From positions 1-53,749 of IMG/VR virus record IMGVR_UViG_3300032086_001878: DNA of 53,749 nt; one strand, written 5' to 3'. Origin of the DNA: a virus. Lineage: Duplodnaviria; Caudoviricetes. The notes beneath the pieces were generated by a model, which did no database searches, was not told the DNA's origin, and was given only the letters and a program-made list of their open reading frames with translations. The number at the start of each line of letters is the position of its first letter. The first letter of the stretch is position 1. Both the position numbers and the translations under genes were made by a program. Below, piece after piece: positions 2,875 to 48,093 of the stretch.

Positions 2875-3179
2875 TGAGCATACCTCACGTTCAAAAAAAC
2901 GATCAATATACCCTGACGATAGGGGAAAAAACATTTACGGCAGATGCTGATATGGTGAACAGCCCACCGCATTACTCAAAGAGCCGCATCGAATGTATAG
3001 ATGCTATGGCGGCAATGGCAGAGGGTGCAGATATATCAGCCCACGCCAGTTACTGTTGGCAGTCTGTTTTCAAGTATCTTTGGCGATTTCCATACAAAGG
3101 CAAGGGCATAGAGGATCTCGAAAAGGCTGAATATTTCCTCAAGCGATTAATCAAAGAAATTAAAAAGGGAGAGACATGA
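2874..3179 (+). CDS. DUF3310 protein (T7 gp1.7-like nucleotide kinase family)
   Basis: DMVNSPPHY..IECIDAM..KYLWR..KG..EDLEKA signature. Confidence 0.8.
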   Translation: MSIPHVQKNDQYTLTIGEKTFTADADMVNSPPHYSKSRIECIDAMAAMAEGADISAHASYCWQSVFKYLWRFPYKGKGIEDLEKAEYFLKRLIKEIKKGET

Positions 3180-3607: not shown

Positions 3608-3627
3608 TACCCTTGGGAGCAATAATA

Positions 3628-5397
3628 ATGATAAAAAATGAATACGGGCCGACACTACCAATCTCTGAAGGAATACACGCCACTAAATACCGAAGTGAAG
3701 GTGAAACATTCTACGAGGCTATGACCAGAGTAGCAGACGCATTAAAAGACGATACTGTTCACTTCGAACAGTTTAGAACAATCCTTTATAACCAACGGTT
3801 CCTACCTGCAGGTAGAGTGCAATCAGCTATGGGTGCGCCCCGTACTGTAACGCCCTACAATTGCTTTGTTTCCTCTACGATTGAGGACAGTATGGATGGC
3901 ATCACCAGAGCCGTTGCAAGGGCCGCTAAGACCATGCAATTAGGTGGCGGTATCGGGTACGACTTCAGTACGTTACGGCCTCATGGGGCGCTTATAAAGA
4001 GCCTAGACAGCAAGTCTAGCGGCCCCCTAAGTTTCATGGGAATTTTTGATGCAACTTGCAAGACAATTAGCTCCGCAGGGCATCGAAGAGGCGCTCAAAT
4101 GGCAGTGATGCGAGTGGATCATCCTGACATCGAAAAGTTCATTCGGGCAAAGAACAATAGCACTGACCTAACCCAGTTTAACATGAGTGTTGCGGTCACC
4201 GATAAGTTCATGGAAGCGGTAAAAACAGACAGCGACTTTGACTTAGTTTTTGAGGGAACAGCTTACAAGACCGTCAAAGCAAAAGCTCTGTGGGATGATA
4301 TTCTCAGAAGTACATGGGATTGGGCTGAACCTGGAATCCTATTCATCGATAGAATTAATCAGAAGAATAATCTACACTATTGTGAAACGATTGCGGCTAC
4401 AAACCCTTGTGGTGAGCAACCATTGCCACCCAACGGTGCATGTTTACTAGGTTCATTTAATTTAACTAAGTACGTTGTGATGCATGATGCGGTAGGCAAA
4501 TGGGGCTTAAAGGATAAGTACGTCTTCAATATGAACATGCTCAAGAATGATATTCCTTGGGTAGTTCGGGCAATGGATAACGTAGTCGATAGAGCAACCT
4601 ACCCTCTTCCTGAACAAGAAGAAGAAGCCAAAAACAAAAGGCGCATGGGCTTGGGTGTTACTGGTGTTGCAAACGCTATCGAAGCTCTTGGCTTTGAGTA
4701 TGGCTCAGATGATTTCATCAGGATCTTCGAGGACATCATGGCTACCATCCGTGATGAAGCTTACAAAGCTTCCATAGAACTTGCTAAAGAAAAAGGTAAG
4801 TTTCCGCTATTTAAAAAGGATTACCTTACTAGCGGCTTTGCTATGACCTTACCAACTGAAATCAGGACTGAGATTGCAAAGCATGGCATCCGTAACAGCC
4901 ACCTTTTGTCTATAGCCCCAACGGGAACTATTTCTTTGACTGCAGATAATGTATCATCTGGCATAGAGCCTGTGTTTAATCATGGCTATGACCGCACGAT
5001 ACAAACCTACGATGGGCCTATCGTCGAGCGAGTAGATGATTATGGCTACCGTGAGTTTGGTGTAAAAGGAAAGACCGCTAACGAACTCTCAGTCTTCGAT
5101 CATGTGCGAGTTTTAAATATAGCAAGTAGATATGTTGATTCCGCTTGCTCGAAGACGTGCAATGTTGGTGACCATGTAAAATTTGATGAATTTAAAAAGG
5201 TATACATGGATGCATATGAGGGCGGTAGTAGCGGTTGCACAACTTTTCGTAGAAAAGGGAAGAGAAACGGCATTCTCAATGCTTCGGCATCTGAGGACGT
5301 TGTAGAAGAGCCTCAGAAAGAGGCCAACGCAGACTTCGTAGACGAAGGTGGGGCTTGTTACTTTGACCCATCAACAGGACTGCGAAAATGCGAGTAA
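3628..5397 (+). CDS. nrdJ: Ribonucleotide reductase, class II (B12-dependent)
   Basis: TNPCGEQ active site, NCF, SIAPTGT, C-terminal Cys pair; no beta-subunit gene seen; ATG 3628 follows GGAG. Confidence 0.85.
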   Translation: MIKNEYGPTLPISEGIHATKYRSEGETFYEAMTRVADALKDDTVHFEQFRTILYNQRFLPAGRVQSAMGAPRTVTPYNCFVSSTIEDSMDGITRAVARAAKTMQLGGGIGYDFSTLRPHGALIKSLDSKSSGPLSFMGIFDATCKTISSAGHRRGAQMAVMRVDHPDIEKFIRAKNNSTDLTQFNMSVAVTDKFMEAVKTDSDFDLVFEGTAYKTVKAKALWDDILRSTWDWAEPGILFIDRINQKNNLHYCETIAATNPCGEQPLPPNGACLLGSFNLTKYVVMHDAVGKWGLKDKYVFNMNMLKNDIPWVVRAMDNVVDRATYPLPEQEEEAKNKRRMGLGVTGVANAIEALGFEYGSDDFIRIFEDIMATIRDEAYKASIELAKEKGKFPLFKKDYLTSGFAMTLPTEIRTEIAKHGIRNSHLLSIAPTGTISLTADNVSSGIEPVFNHGYDRTIQTYDGPIVERVDDYGYREFGVKGKTANELSVFDHVRVLNIASRYVDSACSKTCNVGDHVKFDEFKKVYMDAYEGGSSGCTTFRRKGKRNGILNASASEDVVEEPQKEANADFVDEGGACYFDPSTGLRKCE

Positions 5398-5436
5398 GTG
5401 AGGCTAGGGTTTCCGTAATGTTATTGAGGCAGTTTC

Positions 5437-5631
5437 ATGCAGGAAGACCCCTACCAGACAGGTTATCAAGATTTCTTCGAAGGAAACCTAACCTGTAAAT
5501 ATCGATCCCGAAGCTTCTATGCAAAAGAGTGGCTTCGGGGTTTCAACGCAGCATTCAACTATAACAGGCAAGCAAATGTACAAAGAGTTCCAGAAAAAAG
5601 ACTACCAAGAGTCAGATGGTGCAGCCCGTGA
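5437..5631 (+). CDS. Rmf/CrpP-fold-like small protein
   Basis: GY....G....C.Y......W..GF spacing resembles ribosome modulation factor; GAGG RBS. Confidence 0.5.
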   Translation: MQEDPYQTGYQDFFEGNLTCKYRSRSFYAKEWLRGFNAAFNYNRQANVQRVPEKRLPRVRWCSP

Positions 5632-5998
5632 AGCAGCTAAAAGCTTTTGGCGTTCACTGGGGTATGTTTGTAAGGACAATCCTGACGAGTTCGGGGTTGA
5701 CCTAATAGTTGAAGGACGTAACAGGCGTTTCTACTGTGAAGTAGAGCGTAAGAAGGTTTGGCATGGTGTTTCGTTTAAGTACGACACCATCCACCTTCCT
5801 GTTCGTAAGGCTAAGTTCCTTAACAAACCCACACAGTTCATGGTGTTCAACAACAGTTTGACCCATGCCGCCATCTTTGGACGCAAGATTGTTAAGGAAA
5901 GCCCAACTGCAGAAGTACCTAACTACAAGATTGCTTTCGGTGAAAAGTTCTACGATGTTCCAGTAGCCAAAGCTCACTTTATTAAGACACTTAACTAA
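5576..5998 (+). CDS. Putative PD-(D/E)xK endonuclease
   Basis: FGVDLIV..FYCEVERK; ATG at 5576 preferred over the track start. Confidence 0.55.
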   Translation: MYKEFQKKDYQESDGAAREAAKSFWRSLGYVCKDNPDEFGVDLIVEGRNRRFYCEVERKKVWHGVSFKYDTIHLPVRKAKFLNKPTQFMVFNNSLTHAAIFGRKIVKESPTAEVPNYKIAFGEKFYDVPVAKAHFIKTLN

Positions 5999-6012
5999 TT
6001 TATTTTTAGGTA

Positions 6013-6041
6013 TTGACTAAGTGGCGTTTTGATTCTACTAT
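6013..6041 (+). promoter_or_regulatory. sigma70 promoter of sRNA-1
   Basis: TTGACT-N17-TACTAT; overlaps ACTAAGTGGCGT motif and a GATTC. Confidence 0.7.
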
Positions 6042-6047
6042 TAGAGT

Positions 6048-6178
6048 TATCAAAGGAATGTTTCTTTCTTTCTGTCCTTTGTGTTTCTGTTTTGGGAAGT
6101 TACGGTGATTGGTCGCACTGGCTTCGTTGGATATGGGTAAACCCTCGTAGGCACTTAAACTTACGGGGGTTTATTTTT
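6048..6178 (+). ncRNA. Candidate sRNA-1 (three hairpins, one with an AUUGGUC loop)
   Basis: Own promoter; stem CAAAGGA/TCCTTTG; GGTG/CACT stem around ATTGGTCG; 14-bp terminator stem plus T-tract. Confidence 0.6.
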
Positions 6179-6189
6179 AGAGATAAAAA

Positions 6190-6264
6190 ATGTGGATTGA
6201 TTTAGTAATAATTGTTGGGGCCGTGATAATACTGTACACGGTCTGGAAGGATACAAACGACTGA
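6190..6264 (+). CDS. 24-aa hydrophobic peptide MWIDLVIIVGAVIILYTVWKDTND
   Basis: Manually translated; single TM-like segment; weak RBS. Confidence 0.45.
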   Translation: MWIDLVIIVGAVIILYTVWKDTND

Positions 6265-6282
6265 CAAAAAGCCCCGTAGCTA

Positions 6283-6312
6283 TTGACCACAGGGCTTTAG
6301 ATCGTATATAAT
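6283..6312 (+). promoter_or_regulatory. sigma70 promoter of sRNA-2
   Basis: TTGACC-N18-TATAAT. Confidence 0.65.
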
Positions 6313-6318
6313 ATACTT

Positions 6319-6386
6319 GAAGTTGGCGGTTTGGTCACTGCCTTTTTCAGTTTAGTAACCCTAGGCTTAATCGCCTAGGGTTTTTA
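6319..6386 (+). ncRNA. Candidate trans-antisense sRNA-2
   Basis: GGCGGT-[TTGGTC]-ACTGCC hairpin, then terminator AACCCTAGG/CCTAGGGTT plus T-tract; complementary to early-gene leaders. Confidence 0.7.
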
Positions 6387-6390
6387 CTTT

Positions 6391-6567
6391 TCAGGTAACG
6401 ATTATATCTTCACCATCATCATAACTTGAGCCATCCTTGAACGGTATTGCAGTAAAAGTGTCGAGAGTGCATACGATCAAATATTGCTGATCTGCTTCTT
6501 TACTTTTTTGCGCTGCCTCAAGCAATGCATTGCCAAATTCATTGGCTTTTTGTGCAGTTAATAGCAT
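6391..6567 (-). CDS. 58-aa hypothetical protein (paralog of 46259-46438)
   Basis: MLLTAQKANEFGNALLEAAQKSKEADQQYLIV...; strong AAAGGAG RBS; not in the ORF track. Confidence 0.8.
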   Translation of the reverse strand: MLLTAQKANEFGNALLEAAQKSKEADQQYLIVCTLDTFTAIPFKDGSSYDDGEDIIVT

Positions 6568-6738
6568 TAACTACTCCTTTATTATATGTTACTACAACAG
6601 GCGTTATTAGAGGGAACTACCCTCTGCCTAATGTAATTCTGACGTAGGAAGTACTCAAAGGTCAACAGATAAATTTGCGTAATTTTTTGAAAACTTTGTT
6701 GACTCGAAAAAAGTCAATAAAATCAATGCTGCCAAAAG

Positions 6739-6747
6739 TTATCCACA
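6739..6747 (+). promoter_or_regulatory. DnaA box
   Basis: Perfect TTATCCACA in an intergenic region. Confidence 0.4.
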
Positions 6748-6791
6748 TCTATATGTTGATATTTACCAGGTCTAAAATCAATATATAGTAT
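6746..6791. promoter_or_regulatory. Tandem NrdR-box-like pair
   Basis: Cores CTATATGTTG (6749) and CAATATATAG (6779), 30 bp apart. Confidence 0.35.
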
Positions 6792-6876
6792 GCGATACTA
6801 TGGGATGTATAGCATAAAAATAAAAAAAAACTCCCGAATCATTTGACCCAAGAGCTTTTATTCTATTATGAATAGT

Positions 6877-6939
6877 TAAAGGGATTAACTACCCCTTTGT
6901 TATATGTTACGCCCCCTAGCTTCGGCTTGGGGGTTTTTT
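6877..6939 (+). ncRNA. Candidate antisense sRNA-3
   Basis: TTGACC at 6843; AAAGGG-[ATTAACTAC]-CCCTTT hairpin; TTCG terminator plus T6; 25/27 match to 6566-6592. Confidence 0.7.
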
Positions 6940-9900
6940 ATTGGTAGCCTATTAAGTTTTGCATTTGCTGATCTAGGTTGTTTTTTGCATTCTCAGCTTG
7001 CGCCAAATAATCTGCTAGAGCCATCATAAAATCTTGCTCTCCACCTTCGCTTTCATCATCATACAACTCAGATCTTACGAGCCAAGCATAGAAGAGTTCC
7101 TGTTGATTTTGCGACATAGCAACGTCACCGTCAGGAACAACCTGCCTCGCTACTTTTACAAACTCTTGTGGCTTTGATAGCAATTGTTCAGCTAACCGTG
7201 CAGACTCTGCCCCGTCCAGTTTCTCGCCTAAGAAACCAACGGCCCCTGATCGCACCCTTGCACCAATACGGCTCAAAGCACCGAAGGTCAAAGTAACCAA
7301 TCTGTTTACTGCGGCAATAGATGCGGCTTTGTCTGCGGTTATGGAATTACCTGCACCAGAGGTAGCTTTCCTTGTTCCCACCTGAACGCCACTTAGCCTT
7401 AATAAGGTTTCCAACCCTGCTACATTTTCAGGATTGTTTTTGAATATTAAATTAGCCTTATCTAAATAATCCGTAAAATTTTCTAGTTCCTGCGTAATCT
7501 TGGCTTCGCTAACGCCACGTTGGTTTGGCATTTCTTTTGATAGAATTAAGAACTTATCTTTAAAAAACTTACTAAATGCCGCCTCAACACCTTTTTGTGC
7601 AAGTTCTCTTTCCACAGGATCACCGATTGCGTCTATCTTTGAAAGTAATTCAGGAAGATCACCTGATAACTGCCCATCGACAACACCCATAGCCTGTTTG
7701 TCATTAAAGTATTTATTAAGAACTTCAGTTGTATTCGGGTTTACTTTTCCTTCAGCATTTTGAAAGAACCTGCCTAGTGCGCCCTCGTATGCTTGTTGCT
7801 TTGCTTCCTCAAGTTTTAAAGTTGCCCCGTCTAGCCTTAGTTGCAATTCAGGGGTTATTTTCTCTAACCTTTGGATTTGTCGTAGGAAGGAGCGAACCTG
7901 ATCTGCAGCCTCTTTGGTGGCAGGGTTTCTATCTAGTAAGCTTGCACGGCTCTCAAGAGCTTGCCTGACTGCAGTAAAATCAACTTCATCTAATGCCCTA
8001 CCTGACTGTGAAGAAATGTTACTTACAGCGTCTGCAATAACGTAATCCACTACGTCCTCAACAGATTGACCACCCTCACTACGCAGAAGTACATTTAGAA
8101 TACCTTCGCCCTGCGCTCTGTTTACATCCAACAAACCTGACTCAACACTTTGTCGGGTTAAATCCCTTGCACCTGCTTGGTTTAATCTTCCTGCGCTACT
8201 GTTAGCAAAGTTATCTACGTTTTGAAGAATACCACCATCACGCCAATACTTAGAATACTGATTTCTGTAGTAATCCATAGCGTCTTGTGCAGCCGCCAGT
8301 TTATTAACCTGCCCTGTTTCATCTAAGTACAGAATAGCGTCATCATCTATTAATCTTTTAAGACCTGCTAAATTACTTATTGCTGTAGTTGCAGGAAGTG
8401 ATCCATCACGCTCAAGTTGGTTTAAGGTATCAGCTAAGTTAGGACGTATTTTTGTGTATAGATCCTCGAAGGTTACTTTATTACTTAAAAACTTTATGGC
8501 TTCATCACGATCCATTTGAGAGACTACAGCTAGTAGTTCACCTAACTGAGCATTTCCAGGTTTCTTAGGATTACCTGCATCTAAAAATTCTTTATTAAGA
8601 GTTTGTAATTGATCATACAGACGTTCACCAAACTGAACTCCATCATCATCCGCTATATTTAAACGCCCACCTTTAATCTTGTTGAAAAGATCATTTTTCT
8701 TTTGGTTCATTTGCCTACTGGCACTTACAAGTTTATCAAGTATTGCATCTGCACTATCAGCTTTGTTGATCGCTATGGAAACGCCATCTACTTCGTTTAA
8801 TTGTTCTAGTTTAGAACCAAAGAACGGATCATTTTGTATCTGACTTGTAATTCGATTTTTGAAATCAGTAATTGCATTTTCTGCTTTGGCTACATCATCT
8901 GCGGCACTCCTTATAGGTGCATTGGCAGCATCCCGTAGTGCATCGCCTGTCTGATCTACAGCGGATTGACCGCCTCTTACATCAAACATTTCGTCAGTAG
9001 TTTGAGCTAGTACCCTAGCAGGTTCTCCCTGCTTTGTAGCAAGTTGCCCAGTGTTTAGCTTATTGCCTAGCGCACCCTGTTCTATCACTTGGGAAGAGGT
9101 AATAATTCTTTTTGCGGTTTCGGTGTCATTGTTTCTGAGGGCATACTGAACTGCAGCTAACGTACTTAGACCTACCTTAACCTTATCATCATCAATCATA
9201 GTAATGATTTCATCATTATCTTCTATGAGCTTAACAAGATCACGCTTTATCTGAACAAGTTCATCTGCGGAAGCGGATGGATCTGCAGCTATTGATAGTC
9301 TGTTCAAAACATCATCAACAAATGCTTTCTCTCTACTAGCGGTACTGAGTACTCCTGTAAGTGTAGCTGCACCAGAAAAGAGGTATAAAACCTTGGCACT
9401 TTTTGCTACGCCTTTTGCACCTGTCTGAAGTGTTCGGGCAGCGAATAAAGCATCAGCTAAAACATTAGCCTTGTTCGCCAATATTTGTTGGTATTCAGGG
9501 GCATCGGGATCTACTGCAATCCCTTGGGTAAGGGGATAGATAGCAGCATTTTCTCCAATGAATGCGGTTGGAATATCAGGACTTAGAGCCGCTGCCATAC
9601 CTGCTTCAGTGGATAAAACCTTAACAGTGTTTGCTGCTTTAGGTGAATACTTTAATAAGTCAGTAGATATTTTTCTGGCATCATTTGTACCACCTAGCTT
9701 TGATGATACACGGGATATACCCTCTACAACTTTATCTCCACCTTTACCGCCTATTACACCACCAGTTAGTAACTGTGTTCCCTCAAAAAGTAGGGCATCA
9801 ACGATACCGCCATCACCTGCAGCTACATCAGGCAACACTTCATCTACAACCCCTACAGCATCCGTTGTTAAATCCACATTTGGTATCGTTCCAATAGACG

Positions 9901-28890: not shown

Positions 28891-29949
28891 TTACGCTAAG
28901 TTGTAGTTCGCTGTCATAAGAGCTTCAGGACGCAAGATTTTGCGACCATATAGCTGCATACCACGCACGATGTCTGCGAATGTATCTGGAGAACGGAAGC
29001 TCTCAGTTTTCGCAATTTGATCAGCTACAGCTACCGCTGAGTCATGACCTGCTACCATCACACCGTAGTTGGCTTCGGAACCTGCAGATGCTGAAGCACC
29101 TGGGCCATTTCCTTCGTATGGAAGGTTATTTGAAACGTATACTCGCATACCACGAATAGTTCCTGGTAAACGTCCGTTTCTGATTTCGCCTTCGCCACCG
29201 AAGTCAGCGTTCATTAGCTTTGCGTCTTCATCCATTAGTAGTTCTTTGAACACTGGATCGACTACACACCAACGACCTTCGGTATCTACGTTTGCTGCAT
29301 CCATTAGTCGAGCCATACGGCCTAAAACAGCTAATGGTGAAGTGATAGCACCTGCGCCACCACCTGCAGCTAGAGGAATAGACGTTACTTCAGCTTCGCC
29401 ACCAATGTCAGAACCACCGAAGTCAGTGATGTCTAATTTGTTGGCTGCAAGCAATTCGTCATTACCTGCATTTGCGTCAGCCTTAGAACCACCTGTTTCT
29501 AATGCTGTACGTCTTCCCCATGCAGAACCTGACCAATCCCAACCAGACATATAGCCTAGTACTTCACGGTCAAATGCGTCACGAAGTTTGAACCCTGCAC
29601 GGTCTGTAGCTAGATCGATGAAGTTAACGTGGCTATGAGCCTCCTCAATGTCATCGATTGCGAACTGAAAATAATTCGCTTCAGTTACAACCATAGTGAA
29701 ATCTGCATCACTCAAATCTTGTGTCGCAAGTGTTGTTCCACGGGCATATGAGTTGATGGTGATTTCTGGTTCTTTGATGATTTTTACGCTATCGCCCATA
29801 TTTGCGATTTCACCTGCGTAATCGGTGTTAGTTACATCCTCTACAACAGAGGTGTTACGGAAAGCCTTTTGGACTTTCTTAGAATAGATTACTGGCGAAA
29901 AATTACCGTTAGGTAAATTGCCGTAACCACCTGCTACTGGAAATGCCAT
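28891..29949 (-). CDS. Major capsid protein
   Basis: NTDYAGEI..GDSVKI..FADIVRGMQLYGRKILRPEAL; AAAAGGAG RBS. Confidence 0.9.
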   Translation of the reverse strand: MAFPVAGGYGNLPNGNFSPVIYSKKVQKAFRNTSVVEDVTNTDYAGEIANMGDSVKIIKEPEITINSYARGTTLATQDLSDADFTMVVTEANYFQFAIDDIEEAHSHVNFIDLATDRAGFKLRDAFDREVLGYMSGWDWSGSAWGRRTALETGGSKADANAGNDELLAANKLDITDFGGSDIGGEAEVTSIPLAAGGGAGAITSPLAVLGRMARLMDAANVDTEGRWCVVDPVFKELLMDEDAKLMNADFGGEGEIRNGRLPGTIRGMRVYVSNNLPYEGNGPGASASAGSEANYGVMVAGHDSAVAVADQIAKTESFRSPDTFADIVRGMQLYGRKILRPEALMTANYNLA

Positions 29950-40919: not shown

Positions 40920-41087
40920 CTAGTCTATTTCTAAAGACTTTCTAACCACTGTGAATAGTTTGTCCTGCAATCGTTCAGTTATCTTGCAAAGCTTTAGTAT
41001 ATCTTTAGCCGTTTCTGTCCTTCCTTCTTGCGCTAAGTCATAAGCTAAATTCTGGCGCATATAATCAATAAAATCATTATCTGTCAT
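40920..41087 (-). CDS. 55-aa putative early protein
   Basis: MTDNDFIDYMRQNL..; carries the shared GAAGGAATGACCAA leader; not in the ORF track. Confidence 0.75.
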   Translation of the reverse strand: MTDNDFIDYMRQNLAYDLAQEGRTETAKDILKLCKITERLQDKLFTVVRKSLEID

Positions 41088-41144
41088 TTGGTCATTCCTT
41101 CTTTCAGTTTAAAAGGGGCAAGCTTTAACTTACCCCTGCTTTAA

Positions 41145-41396
41145 TTATTGCGGTGTATCGATTGCGCTTATCGATTGAGACTCGAAGTTACCATTAGCTT
41201 TGTAAATGGTGGCTAAAACCTGTTTAGCTGTTTTGAATTTGAAGATTAAATTAGTTTGTTTTTCTAATTCTTTCAGGGCTTCAGTCTTTGTTTTATGCTT
41301 CGTGTAGAATGCCATTTGATTCCACAATGGTGGCACGGAATAACAAAGCCATGAGCTTTTACGTTTAAAGATTTTAAATTGTTCCTGTTCTTTCAT
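41145..41396 (-). CDS. Hypothetical putative early protein
   Basis: 83 aa; shared leader. Confidence 0.75.
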   Translation of the reverse strand: MKEQEQFKIFKRKSSWLCYSVPPLWNQMAFYTKHKTKTEALKELEKQTNLIFKFKTAKQVLATIYKANGNFESQSISAIDTPQ

Positions 41397-41473
41397 TTGG
41401 TCACTTCCTTTTAACAGTTTCAGTTTGTTGCAATGTGCAACGGAATACCCCCGATAAACTCAGGGGTTAACCG

Positions 41474-41874: not shown

Positions 41875-42284
41875 TAAAACAACTCCGTGAAATTATATGC
41901 CCCGTCGCTATCGATATATACAAAAGCTTTTGCATTTATGTATTGACCACCACCCCAAGGGTCATTTTCACTTATGCAAGTATAAGTGGCGGTTTTATCG
42001 AATTGGTTTGCCCTGTTATAATGCCCTTTGTAAAAGCTATATTTTGCGTCTGGCTTTTTCCAGAATTGATCACCTTTTTTTAAAGATTTTAAAGCCACCT
42101 TTTTGAAGGTATCACCGTATTTATTAGCCACTAAATTATGCTTCTTTAAATAAGCTTCAAATTCTTTATCACGTTTAGCTTGTTCAACCTCTTCGCTTGA
42201 AGCTAATTCAATCTTCACGTCTTCAGATTCATCAACCATTTTTGTTAAAGCTTCGATTAAGTTAATTTGTAATTGGTCTTTCAT
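41874..42284 (-). CDS. Hypothetical putative early protein
   Basis: 136 aa; shared leader. Confidence 0.75.
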   Translation of the reverse strand: MKDQLQINLIEALTKMVDESEDVKIELASSEEVEQAKRDKEFEAYLKKHNLVANKYGDTFKKVALKSLKKGDQFWKKPDAKYSFYKGHYNRANQFDKTATYTCISENDPWGGGQYINAKAFVYIDSDGAYNFTELF

Positions 42285-42340
42285 TTGGTCATTCCTTTTT
42301 TCAGTTTCAATTCGGCATAGCTACCGCATGCCTTGCCCCA

Positions 42341-43069: not shown

Positions 43070-43506
43070 TTTGAACCCCTTCCAAAATTTAGCATAGCCG
43101 CCAATGCAGGAACGGATTGACCCCATAAGTTTTGATTTTCACCGGTTACCCTTTTACTAACATTTATAACTAAAGCCCCGTTACGGTTCTTTTGAATTGC
43201 AACGGTATCACCTGCGGCAGCTTCTTTTTTTAAACCACTAATTGAGAAACGTTTATCTCCCCTTGTTTTGGTTTTATAAAAAGAAACTTTGCAGGGCTTT
43301 GAATTATCAAAACACCCGTCAATGGTTATCTTTTCCCCTGCTTTTAAATCGGTGTAATTAATGCCAATGCTTTCAGCTAATTCTATCACCGACTTATTGG
43401 CGTCAATAATGTGCTTGTTTAACATTGTATTGGTCAACTTAATGACTCCCGTTGTTGCGACTTTTCGCAAGTCTTCAAGAATTGATTCAACATTAAAATG
43501 TTTCAT
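43066..43506 (-). CDS. Hypothetical putative early protein
   Basis: 146 aa; shared leader. Confidence 0.75.
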   Translation of the reverse strand: MKHFNVESILEDLRKVATTGVIKLTNTMLNKHIIDANKSVIELAESIGINYTDLKAGEKITIDGCFDNSKPCKVSFYKTKTRGDKRFSISGLKKEAAAGDTVAIQKNRNGALVINVSKRVTGENQNLWGQSVPALAAMLNFGRGSK

Positions 43507-43838
43507 TTGGTCATTCCTTCTTTTTCAAGTTTAGTTTGATTTTGTGCAGCGTCTTCAAGTCGGTTCATTAGAACCGCCAAAGCGTAACCCATATCGGAAA
43601 AGCTCGCCTGTTCAGCGCATTGCCGCACGTTTTCCCAAGTATGCATTTTGTACACGGGTTGCCTTGTTTGTGGGGCTTGCGGTTCTATCGTTGTCGAAGA
43701 TCCACAAACTTTATTTTCGTTTAAGAAGTTTAAAAGGTTAGGTTTATCAGTCGGAACGTTAACCGCTGAAGCTTTTATTTTCTTTGCCGCAGCTTGTGTT
43801 CCAACCCATTGCCCCGAATTATTTACATAAAGTTTCAT
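43503..43838 (-). CDS. Hypothetical putative early protein
   Basis: 111 aa; shared leader. Confidence 0.75.
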   Translation of the reverse strand: MKLYVNNSGQWVGTQAAAKKIKASAVNVPTDKPNLLNFLNENKVCGSSTTIEPQAPQTRQPVYKMHTWENVRQCAEQASFSDMGYALAVLMNRLEDAAQNQTKLEKEGMTK

Positions 43839-43918
43839 TTGGTCACTTTCTTTTAGTTTAGGTTAAAATCGATAAAGCGAAAAAGAAGGTGGCAAAAATT
43901 GCCACCCCTTGTAATAAA

Positions 43919-44812
43919 TCAAGCCACCAATTCATGAGTCATATCCCATAGGCTTTGATTAATTCGTATGTTTTCGCTCAAGGCTGTAATGCCTTTTGCC
44001 TTGCGTTGAATCCCGTTCCAATTTTTAGCGTCTAAATGCTTATTAGTAATTGAAACGATATTTACACCGCCCTTTAAAATGCTTTCCTGAATGCGGTTAA
44101 AAGCTTTCCACGCATTGCGCCCCGTATCTTCATAGCGACTTGGACGGGCTAAATCGTTTATAGTTTCTTCAGTGTAATATAAACCCGTTTCAGGTTCTTT
44201 ATGGTCAAAGCTAAATGACTTTAAACAATCAGGGGCTTCTTTCCAACGCAAGCTTGCAGCCTGTTCAGCTAAATCTAGAATCTGCTTCACGTTCAATTCA
44301 GTTTTAGAAAGCTTTTCAACTTGTTCTGAAACTTGCGGCAACCCGTCGAGAGTCTGATTAAGAAGCTTTTCAAAGTTATTAGCCGTTGTATGGCTATGCC
44401 GCATTATGTTTTTAAAGCCTTCCCCTGCAATCATTCCGTTATCACATACAAATCGAAAGATTCCTGCAAAAAGCTTTAAAGAGCTTCGGCCATCGTGAGA
44501 GTTGTATAATAAAACTTCGGTTCTAGACTCTAGATCCGTTTTAGCTAATTCGTCTTTATGGGAAAAAGCTATTAAGTGCTTATTATACTTTTCACGCCCG
44601 TCTTTTATATTGGGCTGTTGTTTAGCCCTAGTCGGTCTATAGCCGTAATCGCTTAAAACATTCATGGCTTCAATTGTATTAACAAGCCCATAACGGTTAG
44701 ACGTTTCAGGGCTTCGAATATCAGTTAGAACCGCAGGACAATTTTCTATTACTTCACTTATTGGAAGTGCTTTTGCTTTTGCGTCAAAGCTATGCATTAA
44801 ATCATATGGCAT
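43919..44812 (-). CDS. DUF932 family protein
   Basis: LLYNSHDGRSS..AGIFRFVCDNG..W.AFNRIQE..N..LW. Confidence 0.85.
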   Translation of the reverse strand: MPYDLMHSFDAKAKALPISEVIENCPAVLTDIRSPETSNRYGLVNTIEAMNVLSDYGYRPTRAKQQPNIKDGREKYNKHLIAFSHKDELAKTDLESRTEVLLYNSHDGRSSLKLFAGIFRFVCDNGMIAGEGFKNIMRHSHTTANNFEKLLNQTLDGLPQVSEQVEKLSKTELNVKQILDLAEQAASLRWKEAPDCLKSFSFDHKEPETGLYYTEETINDLARPSRYEDTGRNAWKAFNRIQESILKGGVNIVSITNKHLDAKNWNGIQRKAKGITALSENIRINQSLWDMTHELVA

Positions 44813-44873
44813 TGGTCATTTTCCTTTTCTGTTTAGCCAAAATAAAAGGGCAAGGTGTTTACCCTTGCCCCTT

Positions 44874-47791: not shown

Positions 47792-47922
47792 AGGACATCA
47801 CAGAGGCACGAAGGGCGTTTGAAGAAGAATTAAAACGGCTAATTAAAAAGCCACCAAGCGTCCTGACTGAACGTCTTATAGACTTAATACAGGCAATACA
47901 AACTGAACTTAAAAAGGAATGA
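47788..47922 (+). CDS. 44-aa hypothetical protein
   Basis: ATGA-coupled to int; MKDITEARRAFEEEL.. Confidence 0.6.
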   Translation: MKDITEARRAFEEELKRLIKKPPSVLTERLIDLIQAIQTELKKE

Positions 47923-47925
47923 CCA

Positions 47926-48093
47926 ATGGATATAGCCCAGTTACCTATCAAGCTGTTAGCACATTTAGAATTTATCGGGGTGTTACCTCGCAGTGTGGAT
48001 GAAGATGGCGTTGATAATATCGAAACCCCTGAGATCGGTAAGAGCTTCTTTAGAAAGCCTGACTTCGATGCTCAAGGCGAACCAGAGTTCTAG
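47926..48093 (+). CDS. 55-aa hypothetical protein
   Basis: MDIAQLPIKL..; carries the shared AAAGGAATGACCA leader. Confidence 0.7.
   Translation: MDIAQLPIKLLAHLEFIGVLPRSVDEDGVDNIETPEIGKSFFRKPDFDAQGEPEF

Follow-up and report, generated by a model that had tools for sequence, protein, structure and literature searches.

The complete virus record IMGVR_UViG_3300032086_001878 (Duplodnaviria; Caudoviricetes), whose 53,749 bases were all analysed and are referred to below as the window, contains at the convergence of its + and - gene blocks a short segment, designated sRNA-1, which raises the question of whether it is a small-RNA gene, how it is related to a second unit, sRNA-2, 220 nt away, and which messages it might contact. 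The segment follows ORF159 (5519-5998), the last gene of a rightward nucleotide-metabolism/replication operon, and precedes a gene for a micro-protein of 24 amino acids (aa). sRNA-1 is probably a gene of about 130 nt for an accessory small non-coding RNA. Most likely it is a real unit of this kind that arose from sRNA-2 and that the phage can dispense with. The best-supported role would be a weak auxiliary contact with a leader element common to several early genes, to which a probability of roughly one in three is given.

The window is a virus of the CRP-3/CRP-235 (HMO-2011) type; among named phages, the roseobacter phages CRP-235, CRP-3 and CRP-212 are its closest relatives. The literature assigns these phages to the HMO-2011-type group, which is described as a dominant group with a broad distribution in the ocean (PMC9038755). 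That sRNA-1 is transcribed, that it pairs in the cell and that it has a regulatory effect is inferred here from the sequence.

Architecture and predicted fold of sRNA-1

The unit and the elements overlapping or bordering it are the following.

6013-6041, + strand: sigma-70-type promoter, -35 TTGACT (6013-6018), 17-nt spacer, -10 TACTAT (6036-6041); 9/12 consensus
6051-6082, + strand: hairpin 1, 7-bp stem CAAAGGA/UCCUUUG, loop of about 18 nt with (UUUC)3; window only
6058-6108, + strand: 16-codon ATG..TGA frame (MFLSFCPLCFCFGKLR) from the hairpin 1 loop to the hairpin 2 apex; inner part of a 31-aa TTG frame
6096-6125, + strand: hairpin 2, outer stem GAAGUUA/UGGCUUC, inner stem GUGA/UCGC in the minimum-energy fold
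6135-6180, + strand: intrinsic terminator, core arms 6138-6149 and 6162-6173, loop of 8-12 nt, UUUAUUUUU tail
5999-6009, + strand: 11-nt direct repeat TTTATTTTTAG; its second copy, 6170-6180, is the terminator tail

All features that a preliminary description had attributed to sRNA-1 were found at 6013-6180, where it had placed them. The promoter TTGACT-N17-TACTAT was recovered at 6013-6041, and the predicted start of the RNA lies at about 6048. A 9/12 match is not rare, since a scan of 2.5 kb gave nine promoter-like sites versus 5.0 +/- 2.2 in shuffled sequences. A search with TTGACTAAGTGGCGTT, allowing three mismatches or fewer, returned five matches, one other of which is promoter-like (30194, - strand, TTTACT-17-TATAAT). 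This site, TTTACTAAGTGGCGCAGTTGTGCTATAAT at 30194-30166 (-), has ACTAAGTGGCG in common with the sRNA-1 promoter and lies upstream of a 352-aa - strand gene starting at 29949.

The stem described for hairpin 1, CAAAGGA/TCCTTTG, is formed by 6051-6057 and 6076-6082. The loop between them, AUGUUUCUUUCUUUCUGU, contains UUUCUUUCUUUC, and its bases are about 0.98-1.0 unpaired. The display of AUUGGUC by hairpin 2, also described beforehand, proved roughly right: 6108-6114 lies at the apex, and all seven bases can be opened at a cost of 0.94 kcal/mol. In the minimum-energy fold UUGG (6109-6112) alone is in the loop, A6108, U6113 and C6114 being engaged in a weak 4-bp inner helix; in the consensus fold of the three known variants, 6103-6108 pairs with 6115-6120 around the hexaloop UUGGUC (6109-6114). 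A strong terminator was confirmed after hairpin 2. Its arms are 92% complementary and its fold comprises 17 pairs over 6135-6176, G-U pairs included; a simple terminator scan did not have it in its list.

The predicted fold of the whole RNA has an energy of -41.7 kcal/mol, versus -27.8 +/- 3.1 for shuffled sequences (z -4.43), and none of 200 shuffles was as good. By chance, TTGGTC would be expected in about 0.02 copies on the + strand in the 82 positions of sRNA-1 outside the terminator. The two copies of TTTATTTTTAG flank the cassette that is missing from relatives without sRNA-1, as seen at the junctions compared with L002 and L010; by BLAST against the window, a match such as theirs is no better than chance (E 4.2).

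The alignment of the sRNA-1 variants contains 1-nt insertions and deletions, which is consistent with a non-coding region, and the sequence indicates that the region is indeed non-coding. The 16-codon frame at 6058-6108 is probably untranslated, and the relatives, having no hairpin 1, do not contain it. A 58-aa TTG frame at 6029-6205, considered as a gene, was rejected; it matched nothing in PHROG or Pfam, and L009, one of the related loci with sRNA-1, has only unrelated frames of 25 and 28 aa. Rfam 15, applied to the window at its gathering thresholds, gave no matches. The best sub-threshold matches at 6033-6178 were His_leader (24 bits, threshold 49, E 0.09) and Spot_42 (21.1 bits, threshold 80).

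Kinship with sRNA-2 and the early-gene leaders

The neighbouring unit with which sRNA-1 is compared has the following position.

6283-6390, + strand: sRNA-2 unit, promoter TTGACC-18-TATAAT (6283-6312; 11/12 consensus), RNA about 6318-6390

sRNA-2 consists of the hairpin GGCGGU[UUGGUC]ACUGCC, a spacer UUUUUCAGUUUAGU and a terminator, and its fold departs from shuffled sequences with z -5.26. A hairpin with a UUGGUC hexaloop was found downstream of the ORF159 homologue in all 36 related loci that reach this place, the 37th (L007) ending before it, and the UUGGUC sequence is invariant in 37/37 sRNA-2 sequences (36 loci and the window; 26 of them distinct). The stems differ completely by lineage (GGCGGU/ACUGCC, GGAAG/CUUCC, UGAACC/GGUUCA, GAAUUGAACC/GGUUCCAAUUC and ACGGGG/CCCCGU) and covary, with compensatory changes in 9 of 15 predicted pairs in 22 aligned sequences, from which four L025-type sequences misplaced by MAFFT were excluded. 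The family covariance model, R1, scores the copy in the window at 83.9 bits. sRNA-2 is a strongly supported RNA family outside Rfam.

The loop, 3' arm and spacer of sRNA-2 form a complementarity of about 24 nt to the leaders of early genes. The copies of the word GACCAA in these leaders are located as follows.

41088-41093, - strand: GACCAA in leader AAACUGAAAGAAGGAAUGACCAAAUG, before the start at 41087 (55 aa)
41397-41402, - strand: GACCAA in leader, before the start at 41396 (83 aa)
42285-42290, - strand: GACCAA in leader, before the start at 42284 (136 aa)
43507-43512, - strand: GACCAA in leader, before the start at 43506 (146 aa)
43839-43844, - strand: GACCAA in leader, before the start at 43838 (111 aa)
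44812-44817, - strand: short-spacer leader GACCAAUG, its last A being the A of the start codon of a 297-aa DUF932 protein
47921-47926, + strand: short-spacer leader GACCAAUG of a 55-aa ORF, 47926-48093

The word itself is not enriched in the window (25 copies found versus 25.1 +/- 5.1 expected). The seven copies directly before start codons belong to a longer common element, AAACUGAAA..AAGGAAUGACCAA(A)UG, which often stands just after a hairpin or terminator; the copy at 47926 is on the + strand, and the other six are on the - strand within 41.0-44.9 kb. Five of the starts (43838, 43506, 42284, 41396 and 41087) have the form UGACCAAAUG. The GACCAAU(G) variant that had been described at 44812 and 47926 was confirmed at both start codons, each with the short spacer GACCAAUG. 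The genes behind the leaders are small and have no assigned function save for the one DUF932 protein. Related phages have their own versions of the leader: GGAAAUGACCAAAUG in CRP-235, GGAACCGACCAAAAUG in the relative G002 and ACUAGCUAAACAAAAGGACCAAA in the relative G003.

The complementary part of sRNA-2 changes together with the leaders in four lineages.

Window: sRNA-2 reverse complement AAACTGAAAAAGGCAGTGACCAAA, leaders AAACTGAAAAAAGGAATGACCAAA
CRP-235: sRNA-2 reverse complement AAACTTGAAAGGGCAGTGACCAAA, leaders AAACTTGAAAAGGAAATGACCAAA
G002: sRNA-2 reverse complement and leaders, both GGAACCGACCAA
G003: sRNA-2 reverse complement ACTAGCTAAACGGGGGACCAA, leaders ACTAGCTAAACAAAAGGACCAAA

Mean duplex energies between sRNA-2 and the leaders are -26.6, -27.8, -24.5 and -31.7 kcal/mol within a lineage, versus -9 to -19 kcal/mol between distant lineages, and when sRNA-2 was compared with 75 start regions of the window the leaders took ranks 1-6 (six leaders being present in the gene calling). 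The same co-change would also be seen if the segment were an inverted copy of the leader element; the conserved promoter, hairpin and + strand terminator argue for sRNA-2 as an RNA read from the + strand. In sequence, this RNA is antisense to the Shine-Dalgarno-to-AUG region common to 6-7 early genes.

The two RNAs had been proposed to be siblings, and the comparison supports this in the sense of likely paralogues, through their common plan, their alignment and the match of sRNA-1 to model R1. Both lie on the + strand downstream of the ORF159 homologue, each with its own sigma-70-type promoter and intrinsic terminator. They also have in common a GAAGUU lead-in, a CGGU/ACUG stem, a UUGGUC apex and a terminator beginning with AACCC and carrying CUUAA in its loop, and TAGNTATTGAC is common to their promoters. 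Hairpin 2 and the terminator of sRNA-1 align to sRNA-2 of the window with z 5.45, a value reached by none of 500 mononucleotide shuffles, the matching blocks being GAAGUU, CGGU, UUGGUC, CACUG and CUU, followed by AACCC, UAGG and CUUAA. For the whole units z is 3.2 in L006 and 2.7 in L009, and the sRNA-1 scores with model R1 are 22.3 bits (window), 24.1 bits (L006) and 20.0 bits (L009). sRNA-1 differs from its neighbour by 2-nt expansions beside the loop, by another spacer and, in the window, by an extra 5' hairpin. As to the hexaloop trait of the sRNA-2 family, the window has UUGGUC (as a UUGG tetraloop in its minimum-energy fold) and its relatives have UUGGUA or UUGGUU. On these features sRNA-1 most likely arose by duplication of sRNA-2, the likely parent copy, followed by divergence, and it is probably an old or fast-diverged paralogue rather than a member of the sRNA-2 family.

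Two distinct sRNA-1 variants were found besides that of the window, three in all; L006, L007 and L008 are identical in this segment, and L009 carries the other. The identities to the window are listed below for sRNA-1 and its surroundings.

sRNA-1 promoter: L006 93%, L009 86%; both hexamers identical in the three distinct variants
sRNA-1 hairpin 2: L006 63%, L009 66%
sRNA-1 spacer and terminator: L006 91%, L009 89%
ORF159: L006 87%, L009 88%
Micro-protein gene: L006 72%, L009 74%
sRNA-2: L006 93%, L009 93%

The promoter and terminator of sRNA-1 are conserved like the flanking ORF159 or above it. All 17 pairs of the terminator are invariant in the three variants, and it therefore holds no covariation information. 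The pyrimidine-rich loop of hairpin 1, to which the preliminary description had drawn attention, is present in the window and absent from all four other sRNA-1 loci, where a gap of 45 alignment columns joins the promoter directly to hairpin 2.

Searches for further copies added none. An exact 20-mer from the spacer and terminator retrieved from IMG/VR the four contigs already known and no others, a 23-mer from hairpin 1 had no exact match in IMG/VR, and a scan of a metagenome collection gave seven stretches, two on known sRNA-1 contigs and five in unrelated coding DNA; the IMG/VR and metagenome scans may have excluded records of the genome to which the window belongs.

Contact with the leaders and the competing explanations

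The role considered best supported, though tentatively, can be outlined as follows. sRNA-1 would be started near 6048 by its own sigma-70-type promoter and ended at the terminator 6135-6180. The UUGGUC apex of hairpin 2 would then make a loop contact of 6-7 bp with GACCAA just before the start codons of the early genes, and at the two short-spacer leaders this contact could extend over the A and U of the AUG. In the window, the (UUUC)3 loop of hairpin 1 might also pair with the purine-rich Shine-Dalgarno tract. The outcome would be that translation initiation is weakly hindered, as a supplement to the effect of sRNA-2 with its duplex of about 24 nt.

Several observations are consistent with such a contact. 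Inside the otherwise variable hairpin 2 the stretch GAUUGGU is invariant in the three variants, the next base being C, A or U, and all three fold with (U)UGG(U) at the top of a hairpin. The variants fit a shared model (stem of 5-6 bp, hexaloop UUGGUN, terminator) with one compensatory and two one-sided changes in six pairs, three sequences being too few to prove it. When compared with the 75 start regions, the hairpin 2 apex places the leaders at ranks 2, 6, 7, 16, 26 and 27, and the hairpin 1 loop places them at 2, 8, 12, 13, 16 and 25, its top match being the start at 3176, which belongs to no leader gene. Since the leaders are copies of one motif, these ranks are not independent and amount in effect to a single observation, and the ranking for hairpin 1 is further weakened because a pyrimidine loop pairs with any purine-rich Shine-Dalgarno tract.

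Other findings weigh against this role. By BLAST, sRNA-1 occurs in 4 of 37 related loci (L006, L007, L008 and L009), and on the ORF159 tree the window lies nearest to L002 and L003 (94% identity), both without sRNA-1, the carriers L006, L008 and L009 being scattered among non-carriers with no branch strongly supported. Hairpin 2, which would make the contact, is the least conserved segment (63-66% identity), and the sixth base of its loop is C, A or U versus the invariant C of sRNA-2, which is present in 36/36 loci. The promoter has a mere 9/12 consensus match. The R1 scores of sRNA-1 are far under those of true members (42-84 bits), and a terminator region devoid of UUGGUC (6867-6943) exceeds them with 28.3 bits. 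Duplexes of hairpin 2 with the leaders reach -7 to -15 kcal/mol, versus -24.5 to -31.7 kcal/mol for sRNA-2 within a lineage, and are no better than mismatched pairs of sRNA-2 and leaders. The spacer by which sRNA-2 pairs with the leader AAACUGAAAAA box is replaced in sRNA-1 by unrelated sequence, so that the extended complementarity of about 24 nt is lost and 6-7 nt remain. Compared as a whole RNA with 4670 genomic 47-mers, sRNA-1 favours the leaders no more than background (fractions 0.35-0.90), in a measure whose signal is swamped by long sequences with large internal loops. The CU-rich loop lies 5' of UUGGUC, which is the reverse of the order required for one continuous leader duplex. Finally, a search of public runs gave six RNA runs with small word shares (0.05-0.07), and contigs of four metatranscriptome runs fall in the interval 5400-7000 only on 5400-5758 and 6410-6577, with none on 5759-6409, a result that carries no information on the sRNAs; such contigs reveal neither the strand nor whether a stretch is transcribed.

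The preliminary description had gone further and proposed that the two RNAs divide the target set, each loop fitting one of two leader classes. The comparison does not bear this out. The classes differ by 1-2 A in the spacer, and one base pair is gained by sRNA-1 on one class and by sRNA-2 on the other. Conservation of the loop across relatives, which had been suggested as a check, was not observed, the three variants reading AUUGGUC in the window, AUUGGUA in L006, L007 and L008, and AUUGGUU in L009. In G001, the only carrier of sRNA-1 in which the relevant region is present (loop AUUGGUU), the orthologue of the 47926 leader is of the ordinary class, GACCAAAUG. The duplexes of sRNA-1 with the leaders are weak. 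The close relative G005/L074 has kept both short-spacer GACCAAUG leaders, its contig ending short of the sRNA corner. The orthologue of the 44812 (DUF932) leader in G002 reads GACCAAAAUG before the same MPYDLM start, and a search with the DUF932 protein found one close relative among five loci. Nothing ties the short-spacer form to sRNA-1, and a partition of the target set is unsupported. It is improbable that after the duplication sRNA-1 came to prefer the short-spacer GACCAAUG leaders, those of the DUF932 and 55-aa genes, with the pyrimidine loop gripping the Shine-Dalgarno sequence, beside a universal sRNA antisense to the early genes. If this were true, a natural partition between two RNAs and two leader classes would have been caught early in its evolution, and phages of the HMO-2011 type would shut off or tune early genes by RNA.

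Three other explanations of sRNA-1 itself deserve weighing, each of them rather unlikely. The divergence of hairpin 2 (63-66% identity, with promoter and terminator at 86-93%) is what would be expected of a real trans-acting RNA that has acquired other targets, either host mRNAs or other phage messages, UUGGU being a leftover of its origin; the weak pairing with the leaders and the replacement of the leader-complementary spacer by UGGAUAUGGGU, conserved in the three variants, point in the same direction. However, the window offers no extended complementarity for such retargeting, the best matches being of 10-11 nt with BLAST E of at least 4, and GAUUGGU is the sole invariant stretch in the variable hairpin. 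The segment could also be a decaying, functionless duplicate of the sRNA-2 locus that is heading for loss, a doubtful reading in spite of several agreeing facts: sRNA-1 is absent from 33 of 37 related loci, the nearest relatives included, its loop has drifted to C, A or U at the base that never varies in sRNA-2, the coding DNA nearby is better conserved than hairpin 2, and the 5' end shows a 45-nt presence/absence difference. Decay is opposed by the retention in all three variants of the promoter hexamers, the terminator and a paired stem formed through different 3' arms, and by an identity of promoter and terminator equal to that of ORF159 or above it.

The position of the cassette, exactly between ORF159 and a micro-protein gene that adjoin in 6 of 10 close relatives, suggests instead an action in cis, in which the terminator ends the operon after ORF159 and the promoter restarts transcription of the micro-protein gene, and in L006-8 also of an inserted endonuclease gene, by read-through. 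The promoter and terminator are the best-conserved parts, a 221-aa ORF matching phrog_1035 stands directly behind the cassette in L006, L007 and L008, and the distribution is as patchy as that of a phage moron, an independently acquired promoter-to-terminator cassette. Nevertheless, a terminator of 17 pairs right after the promoter would stop most of its transcripts, the micro-protein gene is expressed in relatives that have no cassette, and the conserved hexaloop hairpin and the similarity to sRNA-2 would be left unexplained; such a role is judged about as unlikely as retargeting or decay. Far less credible is a leader-peptide transcription attenuator, in which the 16-codon Phe/Cys/Leu-rich frame (6058-6108) would control the terminator before the micro-protein gene. 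The frame does exist and ends at the hairpin 2 apex, and the weak match to His_leader is full-length; but its score is far under the gathering score, the frame is missing from all relatives with sRNA-1 (L006/7/8 and L009), the fold has no evident alternative anti-terminator pairing, and AAGGA ends 1 nt before the ATG, a distance too close for a Shine-Dalgarno sequence.

The distribution bears on the status of the unit as well. The whole cassette is missing in 6 of the 10 close relatives (L002, L003, L004, L005, L010 and L011), in which the micro-protein gene lies within about 10 nt of ORF159. From its absence in the nearest relatives and from the lack of grouping of the carriers on the ORF159 tree, sRNA-1 appears to be dispensable; the cassette is accessory, with more than one gain, loss or exchange in its history. 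CRP-235 carries sRNA-2 alone, and the searches brought up no cultured phage with sRNA-1.

Genomic surroundings and known systems

The + strand gene block runs from about 46.7 kb to the end of the record and then from its start to 5998, and the - strand block from about 46.4 kb down to 6938. In the former, a 594-aa ORF (3613-5397) matches in position the CRP-235 gene annotated as ribonucleotide reductase. The gene following sRNA-1 is listed here.

6190-6264, + strand: micro-protein gene, 24 aa, hydrophobic (MWIDLVIIVGAVIILYTVWKDTND); directly after ORF159 in relatives without sRNA-1

Homologues of the micro-protein, of 23-24 aa and with the consensus ..W.....II......YTVWKD.., are present in all ten close relatives (L002-L011), and a Pfam search gave no family match. 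The idea of a type I toxin-antitoxin pair, with the 24-aa peptide as toxin and the flanking RNAs as antitoxin, met with no GACCAA in 6190-6264 and no complementarity seen by eye, none having been computed.

Small insertions are concentrated in the sRNA corner of the genome. In L006 (3618-4283), as in L007 and L008, the 221-aa ORF is inserted precisely after the sRNA-1 terminator and ahead of the micro-protein gene; it matches phrog_1035 (endonuclease VII, E 1e-8) and nothing in Pfam, and looks like a free-standing homing-type nuclease. A 90-aa ORF (MLRLVAVADVNFSKTG...) stands between the micro-protein gene and sRNA-2 in L004, L005, L006, L008 and L009 (e.g. L006 4428-4700). The window, L002/3, L010 and L011 lack this ORF, which has no family match.

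Downstream of sRNA-2, a 58-aa ORF on the - strand (6391-6567) has no family match, and the metatranscriptome contig on 6410-6577 (run X1) falls on it. A 37-nt direct repeat, 86% identical, occupies 6556-6592 and 6874-6910 and overlaps a + strand promoter-like site at 6558-6585; its second copy is followed by a terminator (6913-6933) resembling the sRNA-2 terminators of distant lineages. These repeat regions may represent additional small transcription units.

Very little is known of the regulatory RNAs of virulent marine phages. A literature search found no paper linking phages of the HMO-2011 type with small RNAs, and in a paper on this group, CRP-235 included, the words promoter, terminator, sRNA, non-coding and intergenic do not occur. 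Taken alone, sRNA-1 is a modest case, an accessory and fast-evolving duplicate. Its value lies in indicating that a conserved anti-leader RNA can duplicate and diverge, which is a route to new regulatory specificities, and sRNA-1, sRNA-2 and the seven leaders together form a compact, testable system for the RNA control of phage early genes.

Duplicated sRNA genes, neighbouring or dispersed, with a common seed and divergent flanks are known from Qrr1-4 and OmrA/OmrB, which have a strictly conserved seed and documented expression. In sRNA-1 and its sibling, by comparison, the last seed base varies, and the pair is known here from sequence alone. The c4 RNA of phages P1 and P7 pairs through two separate loop sequences. 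By mechanism, this trans-acting RNA and the antisense RNAs sar and OOP would be the closest known systems. c4 is described as a trans-acting antisense RNA of about 77 nt that blocks phage protein synthesis at the ribosome binding site, with a sequence specificity that differs between related phages (PMC12197685). It has a single target, the ant message, and serves the immunity of temperate phages, whereas in the present case 6-7 early-gene leaders are the presumed targets; c4 and sRNA-1 have no sequence relationship. The same source presents sar of P22 and OOP of lambda as short phage antisense RNAs that lower the translation or stability of messages by base pairing (PMC12197685). These two are fully complementary to their targets because they are encoded opposite to them, whereas sRNA-1 is encoded far from the leaders and has a short seed alone in common with them.

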